Positions 5,039 to 48,014 of a DNA stretch of 64,000 bases are shown here, piece by piece. The DNA comes from an uncultured Armatimonadetes bacterium (lineage in GTDB: Bacteria; Armatimonadota; Hebobacteria; Hebobacterales; Hebobacteraceae), in NCBI GenBank assembly GCA_963699135.1, contig OY969415.1, positions 3,833,577 to 3,897,576 on the forward strand, read 5' to 3'. Under the pieces are notes generated by a model, which did no database searches, was not told the DNA's origin, and saw nothing but the letters and a program-made list of their open reading frames with translations. The position numbers and the translations under genes were made by a program. The first letter of the stretch is position 1, and each line of letters opens with the position of its first letter.

Positions 5039-5039
5039 G

Positions 5040-9694: not shown

Positions 9695-9833
9695 GGGCTT
9701 CGCCTCGGAAGAAGAGAGCGCAAAGAAGCTTCGTCGGGACACTGAGCTACTCCTGCGCTCGCGGGCCCGCCGTCCCTCCCCATCCCGTTGGGCAGGAGCT
9801 TGCTCCTGCCATCCCCCGACCCTGTCATTGCGA

Positions 9834-9872
9834 GGGGCAGCGCCGCGCGCTGCCCCGTGGCAGTTTCGCCGT
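9834..9872. repeat. Hairpin repeat, family A, R orientation (TGTCATTGCGAGGGGC...GCCCCGTGGCA)
   Basis: Imperfect palindrome shared with at least 16 other copies in the window. Confidence 0.7.
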
Positions 9873-10086
9873 TTATCCAAGCATCCGGGCCCCACTTCGC
9901 CTCTGCCCCACGCGCGCCCGCCTCGCACTCCACCAACCAGTGGCGTGGGCTTGTGCGCCTCCGGCGCATTCGCCGTGAGCAAGAGCGAGCGGTAACCCGC
10001 GTAGGCACGCTTCGCGTGCCTCTCCCTCCGCCCTGCGCTCACCCGGGTGGGGGGGGAGGGCGTCTTGCACCCCAGTCGCGGCTGCA

Positions 10087-11232
10087 CTACCTCCCGGCCA
10101 CCAACAGATAGCCCCTCTGCGTTAGCACCGTGAAGAGCAAGTGCAGTTGCACGCGCACCTGGTCTCGGATCGGGATGGCCTGCACGGCCTCCGGAGGAGC
10201 CTGCGAGGCTATGTACTGCCAGAACACGTCCTGGAGTGCGTCCGCCTCGCGCCCGTAGCCCTGACGTCGCAACACCCGCACCGCGCAGCATGACACCGCC
10301 AGCGCCTTCGCCCCGTCCTCCGGGCGAAGCTCCTTGGCGTGCCGCGCCTGGCTCCTCGCACTCTCGATGCGCACGACGTCGTCATCCTTGATGAGATCGA
10401 GAAGCTGCAGGTAGTGATCGATCGCGTCGCGCACGGTGGCCTGCTGGGAAGCGGACCAGTCGTGGTCGAGTGCGCTCGTGGAGAGCGCATAGCCGAGCAC
10501 TTCATCGAAGAAGGCAATACAGTCAGGGTTCACCTCGAAAGCGAAGGCGACGCTTCTCCGCGGATCCCGGATCGAGGAGGGAGGTGCGACGGGCTGGTCT
10601 GCGACCGGCATGCCCGTTGATCTCACGAAGGCAAGATGGGCATCCATCAAGCGCTCGTCGATCGCGGACGAGAGGAGGACGTAGTACCCGGGCGCGGGGA
10701 AGTGGCTCTCATCGTGCATGTCGAACAGGACGTCCGGCGCGAGCGCCGTCACGACCCGCGCGCCAGGCCGCCATCTCCGGGCAGGCAGTGGACGCGTTCC
10801 AGTACATGATCCGCTCATAGGGCGGCTCCCAGGACCCTCCGGCGAACACGCGCAGGTCCCCAGGGGCGAGGAACCACTCCTCATTGCGCAACACTCCGTC
10901 CGGATTGATGGTCGGGATAATCGCCCAGTTACACTGGAAGCGCATGACCTGCGGGTTCCGCTGTCGGAGCTGGTCACAGAGCCAGAACATGGTCAACGCG
11001 CAGACCGGCTCAGTTGGGTCCTCAAACCCCCACAGCAGCGCTGTTCTATCGTAGCCGCCATCGAAGCGGATCATGTCGATAGGCAGACCTTCCGCCGACT
11101 GACCGATTGTCTCGACGCTGAAGCCTGGCTGGCCTCGCAGCGCATCTGTCTGCGCCCGGATCTCTGCGAGCGTCAGATACCGCGCATACGTCGGCACAGA
11201 CGCCAGCAGCTCCTGTGGAAGCGCCTGCATGA
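10087..11232 (-). CDS. M14-family zinc carboxypeptidase, interrupted by one frameshift near 10780
   Basis: The N-terminal half (track ORF 10709..11473 frame, from MQALPQELL) contains ...IMYWNASTACPEMAAW. The C-terminal half continues in the 10087..10977 frame (...VLFDMHDESHFPAPGYY...). A 1-nt indel lies in a CGCGCG run. Confidence 0.6.
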
Positions 11233-11319
11233 CATCTCCTAACCGTTCGTTGCTTCGGCAGCTTGCTGCCGAAGCTTTCCCGCTGCCACCCTTTGTCCTC
11301 GCCGTTCCGCCCGCCATCG

Positions 11320-11420
11320 GCGGGCGCCAATCTGCGCAATCTGCGTAATCTGCGGTTACTGCCGTTGCCGTTCCCGCCGAAGGCGGCCCCCCCCTCTCTG
11401 CGCTCTCTGCGTCTCTGCGG
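11320..11420. repeat. Composite repeat, modules C and D, R orientation (GCGCAATCTGCGCAATCTGCGTAATCTGCGGTTACTGCCGTTGCCGTTCC...)
   Basis: Reverse complement of the GGAACGGCAACGGCAGTAACCGCAGATTGCGCAGAT... module found at 33.85, 46.8 and 47.5 kb. Confidence 0.7.
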
Positions 11421-11429
11421 TGAATGCCT

Positions 11430-11906
11430 CTACCCCTCCGCCTCCCCGACCCTCCCCACCAACCCGCTGCCATACAACCACACCGCCACCAACCCGAACC
11501 ACATCAGCGCCACCGGCGCCAGCAGGAATTGATCCACTATCGCCCACGCCAGCGCGAGCGCGCCGCGTCGCATCCCGAAGCGATAGAAGTAGTCCGGTGA
11601 CGGCACCAGCAGCTTGTGCCGCGCGCCGCTGAGCAGCGCCCTCATCCGCGCTCGCTCATGCCCGCCCGACATCGCGATGCAGACCGCGTCGAACCGCATG
11701 CCGCGCAGCCGAAGGAGCCCCTCGCTCCCGAGCGTATGGAAGCTCGCGCCCGGGAACGCGCGCTGTATCGCCCCCAGACACTGCTCGTCGAGGCCGGGGG
11801 TGACCAGGACGCGCAGCACCGGCGGCGTGCCGAGGTCGGCCCCTGTCACCCGCTCGCGGAAGAAGTCCAGCACATACCCGGCGCAGTAGCGCAGCAGGCC
11901 CCTCAT
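11430..11906 (-). CDS. Hypothetical protein, domain-X family member 2 (C-terminal TM helix)
   Basis: MRGLLRYCAGYVLDFF...AIQRAFPGASFHTLGSEG...RGMRFDAVCIAMSGGHERARMRALLSGARHKLL is paralogous to 4520..5038. Its ATG overlaps the probable GT4 stop (ATGA). Confidence 0.5.
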   Translation of the reverse strand: MRGLLRYCAGYVLDFFRERVTGADLGTPPVLRVLVTPGLDEQCLGAIQRAFPGASFHTLGSEGLLRLRGMRFDAVCIAMSGGHERARMRALLSGARHKLLVPSPDYFYRFGMRRGALALAWAIVDQFLLAPVALMWFGLVAVWLYGSGLVGRVGEAEG

Positions 11907-13105
11907 CGCCGCGCCCCGCGGCCCGCGTGAGTGCATCTTCCAGCCGCTCCGCCAGCCGGTCGTTGTCGTGCTCGCGCGCCGCCAGGTCACGACCAGCGGC
12001 CGACAGCCGCGCCTGCAGCCCCGCGTCACTCAGTGCTCGCGCCAATTGGTCGGCGAACGACCTCGCGTCATCTGCGACCAGCAGCTCCCGTTCGTGCGCG
12101 ACGTTGAGCCCCTCCGCGCCGCGGCTCGTCGTCACCACTGGCAGGCCCGCCGCTATCGACTCGACCACCTTGTTGCGCACCCCGGACCCCAGGCGCAGCG
12201 GCGCGGCCAGCGCGGCCGCCTCGTCCATCGTCGCGCGCAGATCGGGCACGAAGCCCACGATCTCCACGCTCGCGTCGCGCTCCATCCGGCCCAGCGCCTC
12301 CGGCGCCACTCGCGCCAGTTCCTCTCTCGTGCCGGTTCCGACCACCACTAGGCGCGCCGCGGGATTCGCCTTCACTACCTGTGGCCAGATCCTCCTGATA
12401 GAGGAAGAGCAGACCGTCGAGATTGGGGAAGTGCTCCATGTGCCCGAGGAAGAGCACGCGACCCGGCGCCGGCCGGCGCGGCCGCAACGCGAGCTGCTCG
12501 GGATCGACTCCGGGGGGGATGGCGGTGGTCTGCGTGCGCGGCGCCATCGCGTTGGTGATCCGCGCCTCTCGCTCCGAGACCGCGACCACGTGATCGGCCT
12601 TCCGGAACACCCCGGTCTCGTAACGCAGCATCCGCAGCCAGTCGAGCCGCGCCCGACACCGCTCCCAACCGCGCGCGGCCTCCATGCGCCGGCGATAGGC
12701 TAGCGATGTGAGTTCCAACGCAGTAACTACGCACGGCGCCGGCCGCGTCCATCGCCGGTACTGCGCCATGTTGCTGCTCGCGAACTGCACCACCTCCGGC
12801 CGGAAGTGGCGCGTCACCTCCGCGACGTCCGCCGCCAGCTCCTCCGAGTAGTACTCCGTCACCCATCGGGGCAGTTCCGCGAAGGAGCTGTAAGCATGTG
12901 GTGTTGGCTTCCGCAGCCGCGCCCTCGCCGGCTCGCAGTGACGCCCGATCTCTGCCAGCCCGGCCGCTTCCGCCTCCCGCTCGTAGCACCCCACGAACGC
13001 CACCTGATGCCTCTGCGCCAGCCGCCGCAGCCAACCCCAGATCTCCGCGTGGCCGCCTGCCACCGGCGGATAGGGGAGGAACGGGCTGACGAGTAGGATC
13101 CTCAC
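11903..13105 (-). CDS. Glycosyltransferase family 4, interrupted by at least two frameshifts (near 12385 and near 11940)
   Basis: N-terminal domain VRILLVSPFLPYPPVAGGHAEIW... is in track frame 12068..13336. The C-terminal domain ...KANPAARLVVVGTG...RLGSGVRNKVVESIAAGLPVVTT... is in frame 11656..12375. The GTG start overlaps the upstream stop (GTGA). Confidence 0.65.
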
Positions 13106-14557
13106 TCCGATTCCCCGCCCGCCTCCGGAGTTGCCAGCGCCAGGATATCGCGGTCCCCCAGATCGCCTCGACGCCGCGCCCGCCATCGCCTCAGCAGCGC
13201 CGTCGGCAGCATTGGTAGCGCCGCCAGCAGCGCCCGGCACATCATCCCCTCGCCCACTGGCAGCTCGCGATACAGCCGCGCGCACACGTACGCCCAGTGC
13301 TGCGCCAGCATCCCCGGATCGCGCATGTTCTTCCACGTGAAGATCAGCGCGTTCTTCAGAAACGCCTCATTCGCGTAGGCGTCCCCGAACCGCTTGCCAA
13401 TCCACGCCCGCCGCTGGTGCCACACCGACGCCTCCGGCTCGAACACCGAACGCCACCCCCGCCGCCACGCCCGATAGCCCAGCTCGATGTCCTCCCAGTA
13501 GAGCGGCCGGAAGATGGTCTCGAATCCGCCCAGCGCGGGTACCGCGCGCGGTGATACACCGACGACGCGCCGCCCGCGTAGAGGATCGGCCCGGCCTTCA
13601 GCGGTGGCAGGTGATAGGGTTCGGTAATGCCCGAGAACGCGGGCACGACGTTCCCCGTCTCCATTTGCGAGCCCTCGGGCAGCTCGATCCGCGAGCACAC
13701 CGCGAACGTATCCTCTCGATCGAAGTGAGGCAGGATCGCTCGCAGAAATCCCGGCCGCACTTGCACGTCGGTGTTGATCAGCGCGAACAGCGGCGTTGTG
13801 GTCGCCGAGATACCCGCCCTCACCGCGCCCGCGAACCCCTGGTTCCTCTCCAGCCGCAGCACCTTCACACTCGGGTATTGCTGCCGCACATACTCCGCCG
13901 TCCCATCCGTGCTCGCGTCGTCCACCACCATCACCCGATGCTGCCGCCCCGCCTCCGCCAGCAGCGGCGGCAGACAGAAGTCCATCAACTGCTTCTGGTT
14001 GTAGGTGGGGACGATGAACGTAACGGTGCGGCCGATGGGTGGGCCGGGGTCGGGGATCGGTGGCCTTACCACTGCCAGCCGCCAGATCCAGTCGGCCCCG
14101 CGCACCTTCAGCATCACGCCCAGGTACAGGTATGATAGCGATTTCGCGAGGATCATGCGCGCCCACCATCGCCCGCTCAGCGGGCGATAGGGAGGCAGGT
14201 GAAGTTGGTGCCACTCGCCCGCCCTGCCGTACGCGAGCGTGACCCGCGCCCCGGCCAGCGCCCCCGTCAGCTTCCCGCGCCGGCCGCCCTCTCCCGTCAG
14301 CAGCAACACCGCCACGTCATACCGCCGCCCCCGCGCGCCGATCATCCCGCGCGGCCCCCCCGCTTCTCCCAGCGCTTCTATGGAGAGATCTGGGGCAATC
14401 GCGCGCAGCTCCGCCAGCGCTTGCTGACCGGCCGCGGACTGCGTGGAGCCGGCGAGGAGCCCGCGCCGCCATTCCTTCGCGCCGGGGAGATCGGTGAGAT
14501 CGACAGGGGTGAGATAGACGTTTCCTACAGTTCTGATCAGCTCAGACAGGAGGGGCA
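13102..14557 (-). CDS. Fusion protein: N-terminal domain-X (member 3), TM segment, then GT2 domain; one frameshift near 13555
   Basis: MPLLSELIRTV...RAIAPDLSIEALGEAGG...RGRRYDVAVLLLTGEGGRRGKLTGALAGARVTLAY...PLSG (domain X), then MILAKSLSYLYLGVMLKV (TM), then TFIVPTYNQ...VVDDASTDGT (GT2). The GT2 C-terminus continues in frame 13102..14214. Confidence 0.65.
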
Positions 14558-15325
14558 TAGGGAGCCCTCGCTTGCGCCGCCGCGCGCTCCACTTCGTCCA
14601 CCGACGTCCGATACTTCGCCACCACGTCTTCGCTCGCGCCATCCATCATCATGTGCCCATGGTCCAGCCAGATCGCCCGCTCGCAGAACTTCCTGATCGA
14701 GTTGAGTTCGTGCGACACCACCAGGATCGTCTTCCCCTACTTGCTTGAACTGCCGCAGCCGCTCGAACGACTTGTGCTGGAAATGCTCGTCGCCCACCCC
14801 CAACACCTCGTCGATCAGCAGCACATCCGGGTCCAGATGCACCGCCACCGAGAACCCCAGCCGCACCACCATCCCACTCGAATACGTCTTCACCGGCGCG
14901 TCCATGAACTCGCTCAGCTCGGCGAAATCCACGATCGCATCGTACTGCTGCGCGGTCTGCTTGCGACTGAGGCCCAGCAGGCTCGCATTCATAAACACGT
15001 TCTCGCGGCCGGTCAGGTCGGGGTGGAATCCTGTCCCGAGTTCCAGCATCGGGCACACCCGCCCCTCCACCTGCACCGACCCGCGCGTTGCCACCAGCAC
15101 CCGCGCCAGGATCGCCAGCAGCGTGCTCTTCCCCGATCCGTTGGGCCCCACCACGCCCACCACCTCGCCGGGGTTCACCGTGAACGACACGCTCCGCAGC
15201 GCCCAGAACTCCTCGTAGCCCGTCTGCCCCCGGAAGAACGCCACCAGCGCCTCCTTCAGCGTGTTCACCCGCTGATGAGGCCGCCGGTACTGCTTCCAGA
15301 GATCGCGGACCTCGATCCTGCTCAC
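14543..15325 (-). CDS. ABC transporter ATP-binding protein (Wzt/TagH-like polysaccharide exporter ATPase), one frameshift near 14720
   Basis: GVVGPNGSGKSTLL (Walker A), YSSGMVVRLGFS (ABC signature) and LLIDEVLGVGD (Walker B). The C-terminus GKTILVVSHELNSIRKFCERAIWLDHG is in a different frame. The GTG start overlaps the permease stop, and the stop overlaps the next gene by 15 nt. Confidence 0.7.
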
Positions 15326-16233
15326 TACGCCCGCTCCGCAAAAAGATACGACTTCCGATGGAAGATGATGTGCCCCGCCACCGCGAACACGATCGCGATC
15401 GCGGCCGATCCGAGCACATACCACCCCATGGGATACTGCGCCTGCAACTGCGCCTGCAGCGCCGCCGCCGCCTCGGGGGTGCGAGTCGCGCCCGAGCTCA
15501 CCACGATCGGATTCCCCCCGCCCTCCAGCAGTCCGCTGCGATAGCCCAGCACGCACATCGCCACCGGGTCCAGCAGATAGAGCTGCTTGATCTGCGGCAG
15601 GTAGTCCGAGATGATCTGCGTCAGCCAGTTCTTCCCCGTCACCTGCTTGCCCAGGAAGTTGCCCAGCGGATACAGGATCGGTGTCAGGAAGAACCACAGC
15701 GACAGCAGGTTGCCGACGATGAACTTCACATCGGCATAGAACACGCTCCACGCCGCCAGCATCGACGACAGCCCATAGGCGAACACGGCGATCAACACCG
15801 TCGCGGGGATCACCAGCCAGTAGTGATAGTTGACATCCACCCGCCAGATCGCGAACAGCCCCAGCAGCACCAGGAAGGCGAGCGCAAGGTGCACCAGGTT
15901 GGAGATCAGCGCGGCGATCGGCAGAATGCAGCGGGGGAAATAGGCCTTCTTCACCAGCGCCAGCTCCGCCGTCACACAGGCGGTGCTGTCGAGCACGGTC
16001 TGGGAGAAGAACAGCCACGGCAGGAACCCGGTGATGAGGAACGCGGTGTAGTCCTTCTGCGGGTTCTCCATGATGATCTTGAAGACGAAATACCACACCC
16101 CGATCTGCATCAGGGGATTCAGCAGCGACCAGAAGAACCCCAGAATCGAGTTCTTATAGCGCACCCGGAGATTGCGTCGGACGAGGTTCCACAGCACCTC
16201 CCGATAGCGCCAAAGCTCGGCGATTTCCTTCAT
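15325..16233 (-). CDS. ABC-2 type transporter permease (Wzm-like)
   Basis: 302 aa with six hydrophobic segments. The N-terminus ...NLVRRNLRVRYKNSILGFFWSLLNPL is the characteristic ABC-2 permease motif. Confidence 0.8.
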   Translation of the reverse strand: MKEIAELWRYREVLWNLVRRNLRVRYKNSILGFFWSLLNPLMQIGVWYFVFKIIMENPQKDYTAFLITGFLPWLFFSQTVLDSTACVTAELALVKKAYFPRCILPIAALISNLVHLALAFLVLLGLFAIWRVDVNYHYWLVIPATVLIAVFAYGLSSMLAAWSVFYADVKFIVGNLLSLWFFLTPILYPLGNFLGKQVTGKNWLTQIISDYLPQIKQLYLLDPVAMCVLGYRSGLLEGGGNPIVVSSGATRTPEAAAALQAQLQAQYPMGWYVLGSAAIAIVFAVAGHIIFHRKSYLFAERA

Positions 16234-16319
16234 AATGTGGCCCGCAAACGCCTCCGCCGGCGATTATACAGGGCGCAGCAGTGGCAGTCAAAGCGGCGGT
16301 TGCTCCGTGGCGGCCTCGC

Positions 16320-16600
16320 CATTGCTGTCATCCCGAGCGACTCGCCACTCCGAGCAGAGCGAGAAGGCGAGTTATGCGAGGGATCAAGACCTGCGGAGCC
16401 GACCGGAGGAAGGCGACTCCCCATTCCCAGGGCAAGAGTCCCTAGGCTGCCATCGGCGGCCGGGATGGCGGCCTGCGAAGCCGGCTTAGCCACTCGTCTC
16501 CTGCCATGGCCTCTGCCGTTTCCGTCCGTAGGGGCGTGATTCATCACGCCCTCCCATCTGTCATTGCGAGGGGCGGCCGCTTCCGCCCCGTGGCAATCTC
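16320..16600. repeat. Composite repeat region in R orientation (TGATCC/CAGGATGACAGCAACGGC module, GGCGTGATTCATCACGCC module, family-A hairpin)
   Basis: Reverse-complement matches to modules present downstream of 21 kb in forward orientation. Confidence 0.55.
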
Positions 16601-16796
16601 GCAGTTCCCTCCGGCGCAGGTGGCCTCTGACTATCCGCGTCCATCACACCCCCACCCTTGTCCGCCCACCAACCACCATGTCCCACTGCCGGCCTTCTTC
16701 CCGGCCGGCCCTCCCACTACCATGGCTCCGGCGTGGGAAGGCGTCACGGAGTCACCCGACAGAGCCGACCCCGCCCAAGTGAGAAAGGGGATCAGA

Positions 16797-17102
16797 ATGA
16801 AGATGCTCATGCACGCCAGGATGCCTCACAAGGAGTTCAACGCCGCCCTCCGTGATGGCACCGCCGAGAAGAAGATGAAGCAGATCCTCGAGGCCACGAA
16901 GCCCGAAGCCGTCTACTTCACCGAGTGGAAAGGCCAGCGCAGCGCCCTCATGATCGTCAACCTGAATGACCCATCAGGGGTGCCCGCGCTCGCCGAGCCG
17001 TGGTTCCTGACCTTCAACGCAGACGTCGAGTTCCACATCGTCATGACCCCGGAAGACCTGGCCAAAGGTGGGCTGGAGGCTCTCGCGAAGAAGTGGGCCT
17101 AG
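16797..17102 (+). CDS. Small conserved hypothetical protein (about 100 aa; DUF3303-like by pattern, uncertain)
   Basis: ATG at 16797 preceded by AAAGGGG. The product is MKMLMHARMPHKEFNAAL...EAVYFTEWKGQRSALMIVNLND...PWFLTFNADVEFHIVMTPEDL. The upstream part of the track ORF lies in repeat DNA and is rejected. Confidence 0.5.
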   Translation: MKMLMHARMPHKEFNAALRDGTAEKKMKQILEATKPEAVYFTEWKGQRSALMIVNLNDPSGVPALAEPWFLTFNADVEFHIVMTPEDLAKGGLEALAKKWA

Positions 17103-17177
17103 CACAGGCCGATCGCACGCCCGAACGGAGCTGACGGGGAGCCACCGACTCCCCTCCCTGCCCACGCGCCGCCCCTC

Positions 17178-17224
17178 CCACTGTCATTGCGAGGGGCGGC
17201 CGCCTTCGCCCCGTGGCAATCCCG
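17178..17224. repeat. Hairpin repeat, family A, R orientation
   Basis: CTGTCATTGCGAGGGGCGGCCGCCTTCGCCCCGTGGCAATCC. Confidence 0.7.
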
Positions 17225-17306
17225 CCGTCGCCGTTCCGCTGCTGAAGCAGCGGAGACGCGCCGCGAAAAGCGGCACGAAAAGTGGCGTTTTCGCAAGAGT
17301 GCACCG

Positions 17307-17324
17307 ATGTTCCACGTGGAACAT
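17307..17324. promoter_or_regulatory. 18-bp perfect palindrome ATGTTCCACGTGGAACAT (candidate operator or recombination site)
   Basis: Exact inverted repeat in a 1.15-kb non-coding region. It is followed by repeated GCATTTCGGGG motifs. Confidence 0.4.
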
Positions 17325-18249
17325 TTCGGGGATTTCCGGGGTGTTCACATTGGCGGAATCGGAGGGTGGGGTGGGAGGCGAGGGAGTGAAGGGGAACTGA
17401 GGGGGCGGAGAGCGGGAATCGGCATAAGTAAGCAAGGCATTTGTAGTACAAGAGGCAAGCTGAAATGGGGTCGATTTCCGTACGCGGGCCTTTTGGCATC
17501 TGCCCTGGAAGGTGGCTAGATGGGCCCAGGAGAGGGAGGGCGAGTTAGGTCCGCGTCGCGAAATGCGCCTATCAGGGTTTTTTCGGGGGAGGGCCGAACT
17601 ATTTCACGTAGGGCAATCCAGGGGGGTCAGAGGGGAAGCTGGGGGCATTTCGGGGTCTGATGGCAGGTGCGCGCAGGGGTGCATAGGGTGCACGAAATGC
17701 GCGGTTCGAGGGGTGGGATTGGGCTGTTTCCGGGGGTTCGGGAGCGTGCATTTCGGGGCTGGAAATGGGCCCGGATCGGGGTGTACTAAGGGGTTAGTAC
17801 AGTGGGTTTGGGCATAGGCATAAGTGGAATGGGGGCGGGAGGACTTCGCTCACGCATCGGCTTCTGTGGCCATGCCCGCGACATGAGAGAAAGAGCTTGC
17901 TGCCTCTGCCCGGATGACTCTGGTTCCGAGTGCTACGGGAATGGAGGCAGTGCCCGCCGTCGATAGCCCGACACAGCGCGGTGTCACTCGCGGGCAGGTC
18001 AGGGCCGAGGATAGGCGGAAGTGATGGCGACATGAGGGATCGTCTGTGGCAGATCATTGGTTGCGCGGCCGTGCTGTCGGGAATCGTACCGCGTAGCGAA
18101 AGCTGCACTTCGGTCAAACTTGCTCCGTCTGACAGCGGCGGCTCCTTCGATCAGTGGCCCAGGACATGGGAGGCGGTGAGCCGCCGGTATGCGCAGCAGG
18201 AGGGCGGCGGGATGCGCGGCTTCCGCGGGCGGGACGATGGGGATGACGC

Positions 18250-19956
18250 ATGACACGGGAGGAGTTGCTTGAGCTGATCGCCAGCGTCCGCCGATATGAG
18301 AGCGAACTTGGCTCCGTAGAAGTGAAGTCTGCTCATCGGGGCACGCCGAAACGCCTCTTCGAACTCCTCTCTGCACTCGCCAACCGCACTGGTGGCGGCG
18401 CTATCCTCTTCGGGCTGGAGGAAAGCACGGACTACCGAGTCGTGGGAGTGGGCGATGCTAGCCGTCTACAAGAGGATGTTGCCAGCATTGCAGCCGAGAT
18501 GGAGCCCCCTCTTCGTCCGGAATTCACGGTTGACGAGGTGGAAGGCCACACTGTCGTCGCAGTGGAAGTGCCAGAGGTGCCCGTGCAGCAGCGCCCCTGC
18601 CACCTCAGGTCCTCTGGCCTACAGAAGGGCTCGTTCATCCGAGTCGGCAATAGCAACCGCTTGATGACCGACTACGAGATTCTTCGGATACATCAGCGCC
18701 CGCATCCAACCCACATATGACGGGGAGGTAGTGAGTGAAGCAACACTTCGAGGACCTAGACGACACGAAGCTGCTCGCGTATCTCAGCGCCCTGAGGCAG
18801 AGCCGCACGGACGCCTCTTACCTTGAGCAGCCGCGGGAACGGGTGCTAATGCAGTTCCGCATCGCAAAGGAAGACGAGGGTGTCCTGCGGCCGACTCTGG
18901 CTGGGTTGCTGGCCTTCGGGAGATATCCGCAGAGCTTCGAGCCGCAGCTCGTTATCACCTACATTCAGTTCTACGGCACGAGCGAAAATGAGAAGACGCC
19001 TCGGGGTGAGCGCTTCCTGGATAGCCGCAAGTTCGAGGGTGCACTGCCAGACCTCGTTGATGCCGCTGTGCGGCACGTCATGGCCAGCCTGCGCAAGAGC
19101 AGTCTGATAGAAGGACTCTACCGAAGAGATATACCAGAGTATCCTGAGGAGGCCGTCCGTGAGGCCGTGGTGAATGCAGTCGTTCACCGCGATTACAGCA
19201 ACTACGTGCGAGGCAGCTATGTCCAGATTCGGCTTTTCGCGGATCGCCTGGAGATCCAGAGCCCGGGTGGCCTCTACGGCAATGTGACCGAGGACACCCT
19301 CGAAATGGAGCACTCGACCCGGAATCGAGTCCTGATGCGATTCCTAGAGGACCTCCGAATCGCAGAGAATCGCGGCAGCGGCATCAGCGCTATGAACCGC
19401 GCCCTGCGCGATGCCAATCTGGAGCCACCCAGGTTCCAGGACAAGAGGAGTTCGTTCTGGGTCACTTTTCGAAGTCACTCGCTGATGAGTCCAGACACCA
19501 TCACGTGGCTCAACCAGTTTGCCGCGCAGCCTCTCAACGACCGCCAGCGACTCACGCTCGCCTACCTCCGTAGCAACGAACAGATCACCAACCCTATCTA
19601 CCGCCAGCTCAACCATGTGGACCCGCTGACCGCTACCAAGGAGCTGCAGGAGCTCGCCAGGACCGGGCTAGTAGAGCAGCACGAAGTGAGGAGATGGGCT
19701 CACTGACGTTCTGAATCCCTTACTTGTCCAGCCTGCGAGGGCAGAGACGCGGACCAATGAGGAGAAGGTTCTGGCATATGTTCAGGAGCATGGTTCCATT
19801 CGCAACCCGGAATGTCGGGATCTGCTGGGCCTACGCAGGCATCAAGCGCGCTTGCTCCTGAAGGGGCTCGTTGAGAAGCGTCTCTTAAGGCGTACGGGAG
19901 AGACGCGCGGCACTCGCTACGTGCTCCCCTATGCCCTGGCCCCGCGGGATAGCTGA
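18250..19956 (+). pseudogene. Fragmented COG2865-type regulator gene (AlbA_2/Schlafen-like N-domain + HATPase_c_4 + C-terminal wHTH), split into three frames
   Basis: Fragment 18250..18720 is an AlbA_2-like domain (frame 1). Fragment 18735..19706 is an HATPase_c_4-like domain (frame 3). Fragment 19732..19956 (frame 1, no start codon) reads EEKVLAYVQEHGSIRNPECRDLLGLRRHQARLLLKGLVEKRLLRRTGETRGTRYVL, the typical wHTH tail of this family. Confidence 0.65.
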
Positions 19957-19966
19957 TGCGCGGGGC

Positions 19967-20009
19967 TTTGCAAAAGTTTTGCAAAGTTTTGCAAAGATTT
20001 TGCAAAAGC
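19967..20009. repeat. Tandem repeat, 4 copies of TTTTGCAAA(A)G
   Basis: CTTTGCAAAAG TTTTGCAAAG TTTTGCAAAG ATTTTGCAAAAG. It is AT-rich in a 70% GC background and lies 230 bp upstream of the NHL lipoprotein gene. Confidence 0.8.
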
Positions 20010-20238
20010 TCTGCAGACGGCCATGGCAGGCGGCATCTCAGGCCTGCGACAGGTTCACGACGTGCCTGGATATCCCCACCGCGAACCCTCCACATAACCG
20101 GCCGACAAGCCCGCGCCGCTGGTCGGTGGGACGTGGAGGGGGCGGGCGCGGGGGCAGAGACGGGTTCGCATTGACAGCGGCCCCCCTGAAGGAGAATCCA
20201 GACAGTAGTGGTAAAGTGGTGTTAGTCTCTGAAGGAGA

Positions 20239-21219
20239 ATGTCCATGTCTATGGTGCGCAGGGGTGCGCTGATGGCGCTGGCGGCGGTGGCCGCGGCGGG
20301 GTTGCTGGCCGGGTGCGGCGGGCCGGTGATTGGCGGGACGAAGTATGTCGCCCAGTGGACCGAGTACGCCGGCGCGGGGAAGATCGATCACCCGGAAGGG
20401 CTGTCCGTCGATGGGCAGGGGAACCTGCTGGTGGTGGACACCTGGAACAACCGGGTCCTGCGCGCCGATGGCAGCGGGAAGCTGCTGACCTCCTTTGGGG
20501 AGAGGGGCAGCAAGGCCGGGCAGCTCATGTCGCCCCGCTCGGTGACCACGGACAAGGACGGCAACATCTACGTCGTCGATAACTGGAACCACCGGATCGA
20601 GAAGTTCTCGCAGGACGGGAAGTTCCTGCTGACGATCGGGAAGAAGGGGAGCCCGAAGGGATACAACGAGGCGAAGGGTCAGTTCCTGTATCCCTATGGG
20701 ATCGCGGTGGACTCGAAGGGGTACATTTACGTCTCCGACTTCAACCAGAACCGGATTCACAAGTTCGATTCCGCGGGCAAGTTCGTGATGATGTGGGGCA
20801 CAGAAGGCCGCCAGGACGGGCAGTTCAGCAAGCCCGCGGGATTGGCGATAGACAAGACTGACCGGCTCTACGTAGCCGATCTGGGCAATGATCGGGTGCA
20901 GGCGTTCCGGTCGGATGACACCGGGAAGAAGATGAACTTCGACGGGAAGTGGGGGGAAACGGGCAAGGACCCGGGGCAGTTGGACCGGCCGTATAACGTG
21001 GGCGTGGACGCGCAGGGCGACGTGTATGTGGTGGAGATGGGCAATCACCGACTGCAGAAGTTCACGGCGTCGGGGAAGTTGGTGTTCGTGTCGGGCAAGT
21101 GGGGCGAGGGCGAGAACGACTTGAACTGCCCCATCGCGGTGGCGGTGGGGGCGGACAAGGCGATCTACATCTCGGACCTGGGGAACAATCGCATTCTGAA
21201 GTGGACGCCCGCGTCGTAG
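20239..21219 (+). CDS. NHL-repeat lipoprotein (six-bladed beta-propeller)
   Basis: Signal peptide with lipobox LLAGCGG. Six repeats of the NHL pattern (e.g. GNLLVVDTWNNRVLR, GNIYVVDNWNHRIEKF, GYIYVSDFNQNRIHKF, DRLYVADLGNDRVQAF, GDVYVVEMGNHRLQKF, KAIYISDLGNNRILKW). Shine-Dalgarno GAAGGAGAA. Confidence 0.8.
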   Translation: MSMSMVRRGALMALAAVAAAGLLAGCGGPVIGGTKYVAQWTEYAGAGKIDHPEGLSVDGQGNLLVVDTWNNRVLRADGSGKLLTSFGERGSKAGQLMSPRSVTTDKDGNIYVVDNWNHRIEKFSQDGKFLLTIGKKGSPKGYNEAKGQFLYPYGIAVDSKGYIYVSDFNQNRIHKFDSAGKFVMMWGTEGRQDGQFSKPAGLAIDKTDRLYVADLGNDRVQAFRSDDTGKKMNFDGKWGETGKDPGQLDRPYNVGVDAQGDVYVVEMGNHRLQKFTASGKLVFVSGKWGEGENDLNCPIAVAVGADKAIYISDLGNNRILKWTPAS

Positions 21220-21240
21220 GGGCGATGCAGGGGGGTTGCG

Positions 21241-21522
21241 ATGCTGCCCTCTGAGAGGAGTGAGAAGTGGGTGCGGCGCCTGGCCTGGGCCGCATTCATT
21301 TTTGTGATCCTGTACTTGCTCATCTGGATGATCAAGTTCATCGTACCGGTGTTCGGGAATGTGATGAAGCAGCGGGAGCCGCCGCCGGAGGCGCGGGGGA
21401 CGGGAACGGCGGGGAAGGCTGCGAGGATCGTTGCCCGGCACGATTGTGCCGGGCAGAAGCCCGCTGGGGGACAACTGGCCGTTCGTCCCCCAGACCCCCT
21501 CACCGGCTTCTGGCGTTTCTGA
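21241..21522 (+). CDS. Possible small membrane protein whose 3' end runs into repeat family B
   Basis: MLPSERSEKWVRRLAWAAFIFVILYLLIWMIKFIVPVFGNV... has one TM helix. The last 30 codons are encoded by repeat B, so the C-terminus is doubtful. Confidence 0.3.
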   Translation: MLPSERSEKWVRRLAWAAFIFVILYLLIWMIKFIVPVFGNVMKQREPPPEARGTGTAGKAARIVARHDCAGQKPAGGQLAVRPPDPLTGFWRF

Positions 21523-21634
21523 CGAGGGCATGGGGTGGCAGCGGAGGGGATGGCAGGAGCGATTTCCTGCCGAGCGGAGGAACGGCGAGATTGCCACGGG
21601 GCGGCGACTGCGTCGCTGCCCCTCGCGGTGACAG
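21431..21634. repeat. Repeat family B (about 110 bp, two hairpins) followed by a family-A hairpin, + orientation
   Basis: TTGCCCGGCACGATTGTGCCGGGCAGAAGCCCGCTGGGGGACAACTGGCCGTTCGTCCCCCAGACCCCCTCACCGGCTTCTGGCGT...GGGTGGCAGCG, then GAGATTGCCACGGGGCGGCGAC...CCCCTCGCGGTGACAG. Confidence 0.8.
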
Positions 21635-22661: not shown

Positions 22662-22780
22662 CTAGCGGCGGTCCTTCCGCGCGGATAGGGTGGTGCTCGA
22701 CGGAGGGCTTCTTCGATGTGGGGAGGGGGGAATCCTGCGGGGCGCGGGGGGGCAACGGCCGGGAGAACTGCGGGAACCAT

Positions 22781-22950
22781 TGCCCGGCACAATTGTGCCG
22801 GGCAGAAGCTCGCTGGGGGACGACTGGCCGTTCGTCCCCCAGACCCCCGCACCGGCTTCTGGCGTTGCTGACGAGAGCACGCAGTGGTAGCGAGGGAAAC
22901 GGCAACGCCGAGATTGCCACGGGGCGGCGACGGCCGCCCCTCGCAGTGAC
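22781..22950. repeat. Repeat family B + family A hairpin, + orientation
   Basis: Same modules as at 21431, 95% identical over the B core. Confidence 0.8.
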
Positions 22951-23025
22951 AGGTTTGGGCGGCGACAGGAATGTGGGGGCGGCGGCGTAATATCAGAGCC
23001 AGATGCTGGGAGGAGGAGAGTGGGA

Positions 23026-23531
23026 TGGAACTGATGGAGGTGGTGCGGCAGCGGCGCAGCGTGCGTAAGTACCGGCCGGATCCGGTGCCGCAGGCGAAGC
23101 TGGACCTGGTGCTGGAGGCGGCGCGGTTGGCGCCGTCGTGGGCGAATGGGCAGTGTTGGACGTTTATCGTGGTGACCGATCCGAAGGTGAAGCAGGAGTT
23201 GGCGAAGGCGGGGAATGAGTGGATCGAGCAGGCTCCTGCCATTATCACTGCCTGCGCGGACCCGAAGGCGAGCGGCACGAAGGGGGATCAGGGCTACTAT
23301 CTGCTGGATATCGGCATCGCGATGGAGCACCTGGTGCTGGCGGCGGCCGAGCAGGGGCTGGGCACGTGCTGGATCGGCTGGTTCGATGAGGCGAAGGCGA
23401 AGAAGGCGCTGGGGGTGCCCGACGGGATCAGGGTGGTGGCGACGACGCCGCTGGGATATCCGGACGAGGAGCCGGAGGCGCGGTCTCGCAAGCCGCTGGA
23501 GGAGATCGTGCGGAAGGATCGGTGGGGGTAG
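23026..23531 (+). CDS. Nitroreductase family protein
   Basis: MELMEVVRQRRSVRKY...LEAARLAPSWANGQCW...GTCWIGWFDE, the classic NADH/nitroreductase fold motifs. Shine-Dalgarno GAGGAGGAGAG. Confidence 0.85.
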
Positions 23532-23534
23532 GGA

Positions 23535-23885
23535 GGCGGCATTCACCGCAGAGACGCAGATGACGCAGAGAGCGGAAAGGCGTGATCCCTCGCTTCGCTC
23601 AGGATGACAACAGGGAGGGAGTGGCAGGACCGAGGTCCTGCCGAACGGGAGGAAGGGGAGAGGCACGCCGGGGACGGACGCGAGGAACGAGCACCGAGAT
23701 TGCCACGGGGCGGCGACTCTGTCGCTGCCCATCGCAATGACAGATAGCAGTGAGTGGCAGGAGCACGGGATGAATCCCGTCCCTGCGGGGGCATCGGCGA
23801 CAGGCTACCGAAGGAACCAACACCGAGATTGCCACGCGCGCCTCGGCTCCGGTCGGAGCCGAGGCGGCTCGCAATGACAGAGCGA
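23535..23885. repeat. Composite mosaic repeat array (modules C, TGATCC/CAGGATGACA, F, A, A-variant)
   Basis: Non-coding. Contains CGCAGAGACGCAGATGACGCAGAG, GGCAGGACCGAGGTCCTGCC, GAGATTGCCACGGGGCGGCGAC...GCAATGACAG, and a long-stem variant GCCTCGGCTCCGGTCGGAGCCGAGGC. Confidence 0.75.
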
Positions 23886-25729: not shown

Positions 25730-25996
25730 CGGCAACGGCTTCCGCGGTAGAGGCGCAGAGGGCGCAGAGGAACGGCGGTACGACTGGCACCTATTGCCCG
25801 GCACGATTGTGCCGGGCAGAAGCCCGCTGGGGGACGACTGGCCGTTCGTCCCCCAGACCCCCTCACCGGCTTTGGGCGTCCTGACGAGAGCATGAGGTGG
25901 CAGCGAGGGAGTGGCCAGCGGCTTGCGGCAGGGCCTGCCAGATGGCGGAACACCGAGATTGCCACGGGGCGGCAACGGCCGCCCCTCGCAATGACA
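25730..25996. repeat. Composite repeat (module C, family B, family A), + orientation
   Basis: GAGGCGCAGAGGGCGCAGAGG, then TTGCCCGGCACGATTGTGCCGGGCAG..., then GAGATTGCCACGGGGCGGCAACGGCCGCCCCTCGCAATGACAG. Confidence 0.8.
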
Positions 25997-26105
25997 GCTG
26001 GGGCTCTGACTTTGGTGTCGTAATGGCCTGTGGGGGCGCGACTTCCGCTACTGGCTGGTGTCAAATCGCTCGGAAGTTGAGCGTTAGACGCCCGCGAGGG
26101 TAGCA

Positions 26106-31689: not shown

Positions 31690-31925
31690 TGGTCCGGGGG
31701 CGGACGCGAGGAACGAACACCGAGATTGCCACAGGGCGGCGACTCTGTCGCTGCCCCTCGCAATGACAGTGGGGGAGGGAGTGGCAGGACCGAGGTCCTG
31801 CCGAACGGGGGAAGGGGAGAGGCACGCCGGGGGCGGACGCGAGGAACGAACACCGAGATTCCCGCTAGAGGCGGGCAAGGCCACGGGGCGGCGACTCTGT
31901 CGCTGCCCCTCGCAATGACAGTGGT
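31690..31925. repeat. Composite repeat (module F + family A, twice), + orientation
   Basis: GGCGGACGCGAGGAACGAACACCGAGATTGCCAC...GCAATGACAGTG occurs twice, separated by GGGAGTGGCAGGACCGAGGTCCTGCCGAACGGG. Confidence 0.8.
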
Positions 31926-32060
31926 GGGGGGGGCAGGAGGCGGGCGGCTGCTCTCTGCGGGGCTCCTGCGAAGCTTACGAGAATGTGGAATAAGCGGTTG
32001 TGGTGCGGCGGTTCCACACCGGCACTTCACCTTTTGCACTTGTAGAAGTGGAGTCTTTCC

Positions 32061-33759: not shown

Positions 33760-34390
33760 TCCACCGCAGAGACGCAGAGGGAATGGCAAGGCGCGATCCC
33801 CGCCGGAGGCGGGCAAGTTTCGCTGTGCTCAGGATGAGAGCAACGGCGGAACGGCAACGGCAGTAACCGCAGATTGCGCACCCTCCTCACGGCCGGCGGG
33901 CAGGGATTGCGCAGATTAGGCCCGCCTACCGGCGGGCGAACGGCAACGACGAAGCACCGCGGGGCAGCGACTGTGTCGCTGCCCTTCGCAATGGCAACGG
34001 GAGGAGGGAGGGCGTGATGAATCACGCCCCTACGGGAGGGGCTTCGGCAGTAGAACTACCGAAGCAACGGGAAACCCCCTCACCGGCTCTTAGCGTCCTG
34101 GCGAGAGCATTGGGTGGCAGCGGCGGGAGGGAGTGGCAGGAGGCAAGCTCCTGCCCAACGGGGAGACGGCGGGATTGCCACGCGCGCCTCGGCTCCAGTC
34201 GGAGCCGAGGCGACTCGCAATGACAGTGAGGGAGGAAGTGGCAGGACCGAGGTCCTGCCGAACGGGAGGAGGGAGGGCGTGATGAATCACGCCCCTACGG
34301 GAGGGGCTTCGGCAGTAGAACTACCGAAGCAACGGGAACGGCGAGATTGCCACGGGGCGGCAACGGCCGCCCCTCGCAATGACGGCAGGA
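33760..34390. repeat. Longest composite mosaic repeat array, about 630 bp (modules C, D, A-variants, B-tail, F, G x2)
   Basis: Non-coding. It contains two copies of GGGCGTGATGAATCACGCCCCTACGGGAGGGGCTTCGGCAGTAGAACTACCGAAGCAACGGGAA (module G), the hairpin GCCTCGGCTCCAGTCGGAGCCGAGGC, and two family-A hairpins. Confidence 0.8.
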
Positions 34391-34480
34391 GGTCGGCGTT
34401 GACACCCCTTATCGGCTGACTTAGAATGCACGCGGGCGTCGCGGTGCTGGCGGCGCGGATTTCACGTACGGGGGAGTGCG

Positions 34481-37516: not shown

Positions 37517-37900
37517 TGGAGTGCCCGAACTGCGGACGGAAGGCGGAGGAGGGGACGAACTTCTGCGCTCATTGCGGGGCTTCGCTGCGCTCGCAGGCGC
37601 TCGATCGCATGATCCAGGACGCGCGCCGGTTGGTGGACGCAAACCCCGAGGAACGCTTCCGCGCGCTTCAACCTGGCCCTGGCCTGCAAGTTGGGCGGGC
37701 TCGATGAGCTGGCGCGGGAGGAGTTCGGGCGGGTGGCGGCGATGCAGCCTGACTATGGGGACGCATACTATGAGATGGGGGCGCTGTACGCGAAGGCGGG
37801 TCAGTTGGAGGAGGCGCGGGCGGCGCTGCGGCGCGCGCTGGAGGTGGAACCGGGTCACGCGAAGGCGGCGCGGTTGCTGGAGCGGTTGGAGGGGAGGTAG
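37517..37900 (+). CDS. Zinc-ribbon + TPR protein, one frameshift near 37665 (paralog of 24188..25246)
   Basis: MECPNCGRKAEEGTNFCAHCG... in track frame 37054..37707. The TPR part (...LGGLDELAREEFGRVAAMQPDYGDAYYEMGALYAKAGQLEEA...) continues in frame 37691..37900. Confidence 0.5.
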
Positions 37901-37904
37901 GCGG

Positions 37905-38297
37905 AAATCATCATCCGCAGATGGCGCAGATTACGCGGATTGGTGCCCGCTGACGCGGGCGGAACGGCATTCACCGCAGAGGCGCCCGCCTACGCCAAGG
38001 TCGCCTGAGGCGACTGAAGCTTCGGCGGGCGGGCTCCGGGCGCGGAGAAGGTAAGCCGCCTTCGGCGGAGGGAACGACGAGATTGCCACGGGGCGGCAAC
38101 GGCCGCCCCTCGCAATGGCAGGCAGGGACGTAGTGGCAGGAGCAAGTCGCCGGAGACGACCAAGGCTTCTGCCAAACGGGAGGAGGGCGCAATGAATTGC
38201 GCCCCTACAGGCTGGGGGAGAGGCGCGTTGGGCGCGGGAGCAGATACCGAGATTGCCACGGGGCAGCGCCTGTGTCGCTGCCCCTCGCAATGACATC
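37905..38297. repeat. Composite mosaic repeat array (modules C/D, G-variant, two family-A hairpins)
   Basis: ATCATCCGCAGATGGCGCAGATTACGCGGATTGG..., GGCGCAATGAATTGCGCC, and GAGATTGCCACGGGGCGGCAACGGCCGCCCCTCGCAATGGCAG. Confidence 0.75.
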
Positions 38298-38307
38298 TTG
38301 GGGCAGG

Positions 38308-39524: not shown

Positions 39525-39780
39525 GAGGAACGGCAACGGCGATCATCCGCAGATGGCGCAGAGGACGCAGAGGGATGGCGGTACGGCTGGCACCCATTGC
39601 CCGGCACGATTGTGCCGGGCAGAAGTCCGCTGGGGGCGACTGGCCGTTCGTCCCCCAGACCCCCTCACCGGCTTCTGGCGTCCTGGCGAAAGCACGGGGT
39701 GGCAGCGGGGGAAAACGAAGCCACGGACGGTGACAAACACCGAGATCACCACGGGGCGGTGACGGAGCCGCACGACGCGA
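39525..39780. repeat. Composite repeat (module C + family B + degenerate A), + orientation
   Basis: GGAACGGCAACGGCGATCATCCGCAGATGGCGCAGAGGACGCAGAGGG, then TTGCCCGGCACGATTGTGCCGGGCAG.... Confidence 0.8.
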
Positions 39781-41144: not shown

Positions 41145-41262
41145 AACAAACCGCATATGACCCCTGGTGGCGGGTCTACATAAGTGACAGGCTAACCCCA
41201 CCCCAAACCCCACCCCACCACGAGGCGGCAGACTCCCCCGGTCTGCCGCCTCACCTTTTTTT
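41145..41262 (+). ncRNA. Candidate small RNA of about 118 nt with a C-rich motif (CCCCACCCCAAACCCCACCCCACCAC), between the consensus promoter and a strong intrinsic terminator
   Basis: No plausible ORF. The promoter lies directly upstream. The 3' end is formed by a 12-bp GC stem plus a T7 tract. The C-rich stretch is complementary to G-rich Shine-Dalgarno-like sequences. Confidence 0.45.
41222..41262 (+). terminator. Rho-independent terminator
   Basis: GAGGCGGCAGAC-TCCCCCG-GTCTGCCGCCTC (a perfect 12-bp stem), then ACC TTTTTTT. Confidence 0.75.
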
Positions 41263-41269
41263 GGGGGGG

Positions 41270-41413
41270 GGGGGCGGCATTCGCCGCAAAGGCGCAGAGG
41301 GCGCAGAGAACGGCGAAGGCGTGATCCTTCGCTGCGCTCAGGATGACAGCAACGGCGGAACGGCGACGACGAGATTGCCACGGGGCGGCGACGGCCGCCC
41401 CTCGCAATGACAG
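41270..41413. repeat. Composite repeat (module C, TGATCC/CAGGATGACAGCAACGGC module, family A)
   Basis: GCGCAGAGGGCGCAGAG ... GTGATCCTTCGCTGCGCTCAGGATGACAGCAACGGCGGAACGGCGACGAC GAGATTGCCACGGGGCGGCGACGGCCGCCCCTCGCAATGACAG. Confidence 0.8.
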
Positions 41414-41541
41414 TAAGGTGGGCCAGTTGCGTGACTGGCTTGACAGTGTCGTCGGTGATTGGTAGGGTCAGCAGAAGCGCTGATGGCGGCGCGGGACGAG
41501 GGGGGGGACGCAAGAATTAGCCGAATCGGAGGGAAGTAGCT

Positions 41542-45931: not shown

Positions 45932-45955
45932 GAGTACGGCAGTACGGCTAGCACT

Positions 45956-46065
45956 GACTGCCCGGCACAATTGTGCCGGGCAGAAGCCCGCTGGGGGACG
46001 ACTGGCCGTTCGTCCCCCAGACCCCCTCCCCGCCTTCTGGCGTTCTGACGATAGCGCGGGGTGGC
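45956..46065. repeat. Repeat family B, + orientation
   Basis: TGCCCGGCACAATTGTGCCGGGCAGAAGCCCGCTGGGGGACGACTGGCCGTTCGTCCCCCAGACCCCCTCCCCGCCTTCTGGCGT...GGGTGGCAGCGACAGG. Confidence 0.8.
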
Positions 46066-46128
46066 AGCGACAGGCCCTGCTTGTTGGCGGCCGGTTGGTG
46101 TGCTAGACTCAGGGTGAGGGAAGCGACC

Positions 46129-46639: not shown

Positions 46640-46800
46640 CCATGGCACAATCTCGACTGTCGGCGATCTCCTCGCGCTCTGGCCAAGGGAAGAGGTGATC
46701 GATCCGGAGTCGCATCACCCCAACACGCAGATGCCGGCGCAGGCGATGCCGAAGAGGCAATTGGATGCGTTAGCGGATTATCTGGAGGGGCTGAAGTGGG
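46640..46800 (+). other. Possible 3' remnant of a c-type cytochrome gene directly after tRNA-Arg
   Basis: Frame 3 reads ...TVGDLLALWPREEVIDPESHHPNTQMPAQAMPKRQLDALADYLEGLKW and then runs into repeat DNA. It resembles cytochrome c C-terminal tails. There is no start codon and no CxxCH motif. Confidence 0.25.
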
Positions 46801-46810
46801 GGGACGCCGA

Positions 46811-47994: not shown

Positions 47995-48014
47995 GGGGGG
48001 ATTATAGCATGGGA

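Follow-up and report, generated by a model that had tools for sequence, protein, structure and literature searches.

Repetitive extragenic palindromes (REP), together with the bacterial interspersed mosaic elements (BIME) and the REP doublets called REPINs, are short imperfect-palindrome hairpins that occupy intergenic DNA in high copy number, belong to several families per genome, form mosaic arrays with linkers and vary between strains. Classical BIMEs and REPINs consist of inverted pairs, their hairpins carry a 5' GTAG (or CGTC) tag, and their orientation is not locked to the replichore. REP-associated tyrosine transposases (RAYT) have been proposed to mobilise REPs much as the Y1 enzymes of the IS200/IS605 family of insertion sequences (IS) mobilise their elements, and the genes for Y1 enzymes and RAYTs are usually single-copy. 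Here we describe dispersed hairpin repeats in a 64,000-nucleotide stretch of the genome of an uncultured Armatimonadetes bacterium (contig OY969415.1, positions 3,833,577 to 3,897,576; hereafter the window, in which positions are counted from the first letter). All repeats point in one direction left of a GC-skew switch at about 17.24 kb and in the other direction right of it. They appear to be a new variant assembled from known ingredients: REP/BIME-like hairpins that behave like strand-specific elements of the IS200/IS605 type, around a putative, skew-defined origin of replication lacking the dnaA and DnaA-box hallmarks.

IS200/IS605 elements such as IS608 and ISDra2, and their gene-less derivatives resembling palindrome-associated transposable elements (PATE) and miniature inverted-repeat transposable elements (MITE), bear hairpins, are strand-specific and show an orientation correlated with the direction of replication (PMC3971601, PMC3333891). 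Orientation with the replication fork, judged by local GC skew, has been described for IS200, IS200/IS605 and IS607 (PMC3971601), and accounts citing Ton-Hoang 2010 place the top strand on the lagging-strand template in Y1 transposition (PMC3333891, PMC6006769). Copies of long repeats tend to face the same way if they share a replichore and opposite ways if they lie on different replichores (PMC9297083). The FtsK-orienting polar sequences (KOPS), the SpoIIIE recognition sequences (SRS) and Chi follow the leading strand and flip at the origin; they are 8-mers found throughout coding DNA and have a defined reader.

The repeats of the window are mosaics of about ten hairpin modules (28–170 nt, most of them 28–56 nt). 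Module A has three variants with the common frame GAGATTGCCAC-hairpin-TCGCAATGACAG, module B is about 150 nt long with two invariant hairpins and defined boundaries, and the remaining modules are designated C, D, E, F and G; purine-rich linkers lie between them, with AACGGC recurring. All 53 hairpins, found in 18 arrays, are intergenic, except for one B copy which overlaps the 3' end of a 93-aa open reading frame (ORF); as in REPs and BIMEs, short (~20–45 nt) imperfect palindromes are present extragenically in many copies. Unlike classical BIMEs and REPINs, the arrays run strictly head to tail, and self-BLAST of the window revealed no inverted pairs within a replichore, that is, no REPIN-like unit of a REP and an inverse REP (iREP). 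Compared with IS200/IS605 elements, the modules lack tnpA and tnpB and are much shorter, while the orientation bias, statistical in the published cases, is absolute in the window. The published rule for long repeats is likewise a tendency, established for identical repeats of at least 100 bp such as rRNA operons and IS elements, whereas the modules of 28–170 nt obey it without exception. Finally, KOPS, SRS and Chi differ from these intergenic mosaics, the content of which is interchangeable.

Repeat orientation follows the replication strand

The G+C content of the whole window is 67%, and its GC skew is about -0.2 over 1–17 kb and about +0.2 over 17–64 kb. The minimum of the cumulative G-C curve is located at 17237..17243, and a two-segment fit has its best breakpoint at 17240, the means on the two sides being symmetric at -0.116 (left) and +0.115 (right) (G-C) per nucleotide. 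Genes were called from codon-position GC, and most calls were confirmed by Pfam (about 50 window genes annotated). The skew at third codon positions (GC3 skew), read on the plus strand, ranges from +0.2 to +0.57 right of the switch, in plus- and minus-strand genes alike, and from -0.14 to -0.60 in the genes of the left block, where 10087-10977 is the sole outlier (0.00); on either side it is at full strength right up to the junction. Since the skew keeps its sign whichever way a gene runs and changes it at one point only, the asymmetry is of the replication type and not a coding-strand effect, which supports the view of the preliminary description that the switch is a replication-related boundary. 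Strand asymmetry as extreme as this (GC3 skew of 0.3–0.5) is limited to one species-level lineage, represented by the window, the comparison contigs L048 and L055, and JGI contigs; in the syntenic relatives L049, L050, L052 and L053 (72–85% identity in the NHL protein) the GC3 skew is about zero. Such asymmetry, absent from the nearest relatives, raises a question of replication or repair.

Repeat copies were mapped by probing with eight module consensus sequences. Left of 17.3 kb all matches are reverse-oriented (9822-9842, 11329-11359, 16322-16339, 16526-16554, 16558-16600 and 17181-17221). On the right side, starting with the match at 21431, there are about 45 module copies in 14 arrays, every one of them forward, and the only minus-strand probe matches there are due to a self-complementary hairpin within B. 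Self-BLAST of the window, which is free of module definitions, yielded, among pairs of at least 35 nt and at least 80% identity, 75 direct right-right, 22 inverted left-right and one direct left-left pair, with no exceptions. This confirms what was first noticed in the sequence, namely that the repeats are reverse before 17.3 kb and forward from 21.4 kb onward, all seven B copies included. The last reverse copy, an A module at 17181..17224 on the minus strand, ends 16 nt short of the skew minimum, and the first forward copy begins at 21385. It is always the G-rich strand that carries the version written GAGATTGCC...GCAATGACAG; by sequence this is the leading strand, whereas physically it serves as the lagging-strand template, and the forward strand of every module thus lies where the active strand of IS200/IS605 elements does.

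To extend the comparison beyond the window, public metagenomes were scanned with the invariant strand-asymmetric core of B, which returned 24 contigs about 90% identical to the lineage, comprising 15 distinct regions outside the window and three overlapping it. On all 24 contigs B is oriented according to the sign of the local skew, and it remains so when only the GC3 skew of flanking genes is considered. When the other families (A, C, D, E, F and G) were compared, on these contigs and on L048, with the local skew computed with the arrays masked, agreement was found for 68 of 69 copies, and the lone disagreeing copy sits where that skew is +0.016. Overall, none of about 115 copies is clearly opposed to the local skew, so that the bias with replication direction typical of IS200/IS605-derived elements is found here as well. 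Randomness of orientation with respect to strand had been named beforehand as the outcome that would contradict strand-specific insertion or selection of the repeats; on independent contigs of this lineage the orientation is not random (68/69; 15 regions), and the strand-specific proposal is strengthened. In practice, one could read from the direction of the repeats which replichore a metagenome contig of this lineage comes from, and find origins in cases where dnaA and DnaA boxes are no guide.

Co-orientation with transcription, and with it action at the RNA level, had also been suggested, but is not supported. Among the genes flanking B copies in the window and the 24 contigs, 30 are co-oriented and 23 anti-oriented with the repeat, and five B copies (at 39.6 kb and 48.1 kb in the window and on contigs L024, L029 and L034) have both neighbours on the opposite strand. 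Gene polarity was described as changing together with the repeats; the left block is indeed entirely minus-strand, but only about 70% of the genes on the right are plus-strand, which amounts to a bias. As to base composition, the numbers of G and C are exactly equal in module E and in each of the three variants of module A, so their orientation is explained neither by mutational bias nor by G-richness, and this cause is ruled out. Repeat orientation is therefore tied to the replication strand and not to transcription or base composition. With both of these causes excludable, very short gene-less hairpins that record the direction of replication without exception make an unusually clean natural case and a good system for studying whether REP-like elements spread by insertion at the fork or are sorted by selection.

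A putative replication origin at the switch

Both the G-rich strands and the gene orientation diverge from 17.24 kb, which is origin polarity and speaks against a terminus, one of the possibilities raised in the preliminary description. To the left, 553-16233 is an unbroken minus-strand exopolysaccharide cluster (12 of 12 block genes) with glycosyltransferases, an epimerase, a pyruvyl transferase and an ABC-2 exporter. To the right, plus-strand genes prevail. A cumulative GC-skew minimum with diverging G-rich strands and a gene-orientation bias diverging from the same site are both expected of a bacterial oriC, as is a non-coding region with repeated short boxes; an AT-rich tandem nearby is a possible further likeness.

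Strain rearrangements point the same way. In sister-strain DNA (L055:1-11622 and L056:1-4887, about 91% identical, two independent assemblies), sequence at about 22.9 kb is joined to window positions 9709->2033 in reverse complement. This junction corresponds to an inversion of about 13 kb which spans the switch, with breakpoints 7.4 kb to the left and 5.7 kb to the right of 17.24 kb, both located within oppositely oriented arrays (the zones at 9.8 kb and 22.9 kb). The inversion leaves every gene on the G-rich strand, while the distal exopolysaccharide genes change replichore. Rearrangement about the site with strand polarity kept is what an origin would show, origin-spanning, polarity-preserving inversions being a classical origin signature (a concept cited in PMC2134941 and PMC9297083). 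It also extends the likeness to the long-repeat rule, which includes origin-spanning strain inversions via oppositely oriented copies (PMC9297083, PMC2134941). Because copies are direct within and inverted between replichores, recombination among them yields only origin-spanning inversions in which genes keep their replication strand; one such event has been caught between sister strains, and it demonstrates that recombination between arrays is real. The reciprocal junction was sought on L048, the first gene of which is unrelated to 10087-10977 of the window.

The switch region itself, 17.1–18.25 kb, contains no coherent reading frame and is modestly GC-poor (0.60–0.64 versus 0.67), in agreement with the preliminary description. 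The 18-bp perfect palindrome noted there (ATGTTCCACGTGGAACAT, 17307-17324) is real but carries no statistical weight, since 80 of 200 composition-matched shuffles (40%) hold one at least as long, and it was discarded as an origin feature. Ten boxes with an ATTTC/GAAAT core are concentrated within 440 nt at 17323..17766, against a window mean of 0.35 per 500 nt, and all four GCATTTCG octamers of the window fall in this same segment in alternating orientation. These boxes are candidate protein-binding sites of an origin region; RNA folding of the GCATTTCG region gave z = -1.0, that is, no structure. A further non-coding block at 17780..17834, 91% conserved in a sister strain, includes the inverted repeat TGTACTAA-GGGG-TTAGTACA; the sister strain L057 has kept this block, another at 17614-17655 and boxes of this type.

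Beyond the non-coding region lies a frameshifted pseudogene of the AlbA_2 (Schlafen-type)/HATPase_c_4 kind (18250..19957, plus strand), a skew-neutral piece of foreign cargo with lower GC content. Its place is taken in L055 and L057 (L057:381-2694) by a CHAT-domain gene and a 120-aa gene, so the putative origin looks like the site of a small, variable, defence-like island. Just past the pseudogene, at 19968..20010, the AT-richest stretch of the window consists of four tandem copies of TTTTGCAAAG, a possible unwinding or binding element; the relatives lack this tandem upstream of NHL. When compared with plasmids and phages, the 3.9-kb switch segment revealed no similarity except for its small ORF at 16797-17102. 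Taken together, the skew, the diverging genes and the inversion make it quite probable that the switch at about 17,240 is the replication origin of the chromosome, and we infer that this origin is active.

Strand-specific insertion, selection and other readings

The reading that we prefer joins a fork-divergence origin at about 17,240 with replichore-locked, REP/BIME-like repeats whose insertion through single-stranded DNA is reinforced by selection; we give it a probability of roughly 60%. According to this reading, 17,240 would be the point where the two forks of the 4.66-Mb chromosome part, in a lineage with unusually strong strand asymmetry, and repeat orientation, being fixed to the replication strand, would flip exactly where the direction of replication flips. 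The modules may spread via a single-stranded DNA intermediate; an enzyme would recognise one strand of the hairpin and insert it, at the fork, into the template of the lagging strand, acting like the Y1/HUH transposases of the IS200/IS605 family or their REP-associated relatives, the RAYTs. Selection could add reinforcement, with inversions that break polarity counter-selected and inverted pairs between replichores tolerated. Strand-specific insertion of single-stranded DNA is the most likely generator of the pattern, in view of the absoluteness of the rule, modules as short as 28–56 nt, the many families that obey it at once, and strain-specific differences that are correctly oriented. The last point derives from orthologous intergenic sites of strains 90–94% identical, where the unique flanks align and whole modules have been gained, lost or swapped with orientation retained; L048, for instance, has a full B at a site where the window has only a B tail preceded by A, D and G.

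Several observations weigh against this reading. Unlike typical oriC regions, the switch has no adjacent dnaA or dnaN; neither these nor any other origin-linked gene were detected by Pfam in the window (17 kb to the left and 47 kb to the right), and no cluster of canonical DnaA boxes (TTATCCACA-like) was found, with no enrichment even when two mismatches were allowed. The four TTTTGCAAAG copies, the AT-richest 40-mer, lie 2.7 kb from the skew minimum with the pseudogene in between. Moreover, the 3.9 kb at the switch (16270-20206) is a strain-variable island missing from relatives with 72–85% NHL identity, in which the corresponding gap is 250–390 bp; as these relatives lack the segment and have a GC3 skew of about zero, they offer no means of demonstrating that an origin is conserved here. 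A single switch is visible within the 64 kb. With regard to insertion, tblastn with IS200 TnpA and E. coli RAYT probes identified no Y1/HUH or RAYT gene in the 443 kb examined, and no clean pair of empty and filled sites was seen among the orthologous strain sites compared. The GTAG (or CGTC) tag of classical REPs was not seen at the hairpin foot in the module consensus sequences, where a frame GAT-stem...stem-ATGACAG and AACGG(C) linkers recur instead. Finally, the only other genome with several copies among those examined, a metagenome-assembled genome (MAG) labelled Atribacterota, has the hairpin frame in both orientations locally, indicating that an enzyme family common to both, if there is one, does not enforce a single orientation in every case.

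The Atribacterota copies belong to a wider distribution. The outer frame of module A (GAGATTGCCACGGGGC...GCCCCTCGCAATGAC) is base-identical in MAGs labelled Atribacterota, rumen Clostridia, Armatimonadota and Alphaproteobacteria (L001-L023), which span 34–67% G+C, and variation is confined to the apical part. In the Atribacterota MAG the A-frame hairpins occur as adjacent inverted copies, like the REP/iREP pairs of BIMEs and REPINs. Their presence in other phyla and these inverted pairs suggest that the hairpins are of a widespread REP-like kind, whereas the strict replichore rule is particular to the present lineage. The rumen copies of the frame are single and have conserved flanks, ATCGGTT|...|TATTTTGAATAA, and in the Armatimonadota MAG SPRUCE 339 the apical sequence of A is nearly as in the window.

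The strongest competitor is selection acting alone, whereby modules insert or arise either way and wrong-way copies are purged because the inversions they promote misplace genes and skewed sequence; where strand asymmetry is extreme, such pressure would suffice for a single orientation to survive on each replichore. It predicts the direct-within, inverted-between pattern, a documented genome-wide tendency of long repeats (PMC9297083); it is also consistent with the sister-strain inversion, both breakpoints of which lie in arrays, with the very strong skew specific to this lineage, and with the two orientations in the Atribacterota MAG, which suggest no intrinsic orientation there. However, most modules, at 28–56 nt, are poor substrates for homologous recombination, and yet the rule holds without a clear exception, diverged copies included, while the tendency in the literature is a statistical one, described for identical repeats of 100 bp or more. 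Selection alone would also leave a few recent wrong-way copies, none of which was found among about 115. Moreover, REPs facing both ways are tolerated by the hundred in other bacteria. We regard selection as the sole cause as unlikely, although it is the least unlikely of the alternatives.

Alternatively, the skew switch could be a rearrangement scar or the edge of foreign DNA rather than an origin, with the repeats carried along with their flanks. The lack of dnaA and DnaA boxes, the lineage-specific and partly foreign nature of the 3.9 kb at the switch and the occurrence of inversions at the locus would fit this. Nevertheless, the adjacency of a minus-strand ABC-2 permease gene and the plus-strand NHL gene across the junction is retained in five relatives (L049, L050, L052, L053 and L054; 72–85% identity in the NHL protein and 43–61% in a 735-aa protein) and is thus ancestral, so no rearrangement created the switch, and the earlier idea of an inversion point is not sustained. 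Nor can a foreign insertion reverse the skew of its flanks; the GC3 skew is fully developed up to the junction, genes and G-richness diverge as at an origin, and the observed inversion spans the switch and preserves polarity. On balance, a scar or foreign edge seems improbable.

Similarly little credence is given to a more far-reaching combination of novelties. In it, an origin without canonical DnaA boxes or dnaA linkage would operate on ATTTCG-type boxes within a strain-variable, defence-like island, and the hairpin mosaics would belong to a replication-strand system peculiar to the lineage, in which either a domesticated HUH enzyme places polar arrays on the lagging-strand template alone or the mosaics serve as polar signals during replication or segregation; the system would be linked to the strand asymmetry (GC3 skew of 0.3–0.5) that relatives with 72–85% NHL identity lack.

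The idea that the modules or their G-rich linkers are polar functional sites, read directionally in replication or segregation like KOPS/SRS, Chi, fork-barrier or primase sites, is less probable still. A replichore-locked orientation that flips at the skew switch is what defines architecture-imparting sequences, the arrays contain GGGNAGGG-type motifs of strong polarity (13 versus 1 on the right, 1 versus 6 on the left), and the base-level conservation of the outer frame of module A across phyla suggests recognition by a protein. On the other hand, the skew by itself would make G-rich motifs polar, the known signals are 8-mers running through coding DNA and not intergenic hairpin mosaics of 40–170 nt, module content is freely swapped between strains, contrary to a site-specific function, and the Atribacterota MAG has the same hairpins in both orientations side by side. 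Least of all would we expect RNA-level elements that follow gene direction (terminators, stabilisers, processing sites or small-RNA genes), whose flip would mirror nothing more than the altered gene polarity, since, although the hairpins would fold in RNA as well and co-oriented genes end shortly before many arrays (25277-25720, 29590-31671 and 33370-33753 are examples), B copies sit between opposite-strand genes, Rfam matches and covariation are lacking, and a tRNA-Pro gene runs head-on in the right replichore, so that strict co-orientation of RNA genes is not a rule here.

Arrays, module searches and neighbouring genes

In the left replichore all arrays are on the minus strand. The array at 9783..9867, with an A-type and a C-like hairpin, lies upstream of the pyruvyl-transferase gene and forms the left breakpoint zone of the inversion. 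It is followed by heptamer repeats of module F (CGCAGAT/CGCAGAG) with linkers at 11319..11445, and by an E-like TGATCC...GGATGACAG module with D and A at 16300..16625.

On the plus strand of the right replichore, the first array (B, C-like and A) occupies 21385..21634, and the second (B and A) at 22734..22952 forms the right breakpoint zone. The array at 23520..23830 contains F-like, E, C, A and D-like modules and A variant 3, and is mostly replaced by B in L048. B, a hairpin and A are found at 25745..26006, and A, C and A at 31690..31975. The largest array, at 33790..34400, comprises E, F, A, D, G, a truncated B tail, C-like, A variant 3, C, D, G and A; the next, at 37900..38300, has F, hairpins, A, D-like and A. 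The key case separating replication strand from transcription is the B copy at 39547..39720, located between the minus-strand genes 38308-39597, encoding an iron-containing alcohol dehydrogenase (Fe-ADH), and 39799-41067. Further along are F-like, E and A (41260..41430), a B copy (45909..46082), an array of F, a hairpin, E, hairpins and A (46790..47060), one of F, a hairpin and an E-like module (47460..47600), and a B copy (48006..48179) between minus-strand genes for a zincin (47623-48051) and a protein of the apurinic/apyrimidinic (AP) endonuclease type (48207-48968). The last B copy, at 58436..58609, lies between divergent genes.

Searches with the modules gave the following results. Against Rfam, at both the gathering and E<=1 thresholds, the window matched only two tRNAs, and the repeats had no family match. 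In an alignment of 23 B sequences the covariation term was +0.24 and the hairpins were invariant; the copies are too similar for covariation to appear, and their near-identity is more in keeping with a family amplified recently than with an old structured RNA. A literature search with repeat strings such as CGCAATGAC and GTCATTGCGAG returned only primers. Integron attC-like sites were ruled out, since RYYYAAC/GTTRRRY cores are missing and the arrays are dispersed among core genes. A universal cleavage tag, a hairpin followed by ACGG, was also dropped, because ACGG occurs within 12 nt downstream of just 13 of the 53 hairpins.

Right of the switch at least 11 minus-strand genes were confirmed by Pfam. 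Besides the three Pfam-named genes mentioned above and 39799-41067, they include MoxR (21690-22661), GT87 (56167-57531), creatininase (57533-58396), gamma-glutamyltransferase (GGT, 60477-62099) and ABC-2 permeases (62229-63910). The tRNA-Pro (CGG) gene at 37242-37317 is the one that runs head-on to the inferred direction of replication.

Just left of the switch and within the lineage-specific 3.9-kb segment, the small ORF at 16797-17102 (101 aa) is on the plus strand. It has no Pfam match; distant DNA matches (71–80%) were found on secondary replicons of Burkholderia and Ralstonia, one of them annotated as pantothenate synthetase.

Differences between strains also concern neighbouring genes. 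In L048 (7817-8965) a strain-specific IS element with an rve/DDE integrase replaces the window gene 29590-31671; the GC3 skew of this element runs counter to that of the DNA around it, as would be expected of a recent insertion. The segment 37407-37890 of the window (about 0.5 kb, including a small zinc-ribbon/TPR-like ORF) is missing at the orthologous site in L048 and L046. The conserved small membrane-protein ORF at 21241-21522, which encodes 80 aa in L049, is extended to 93 aa in the window; its 3' end runs into the B repeat, which indicates that the C-terminus has been remodelled by repeat insertion.

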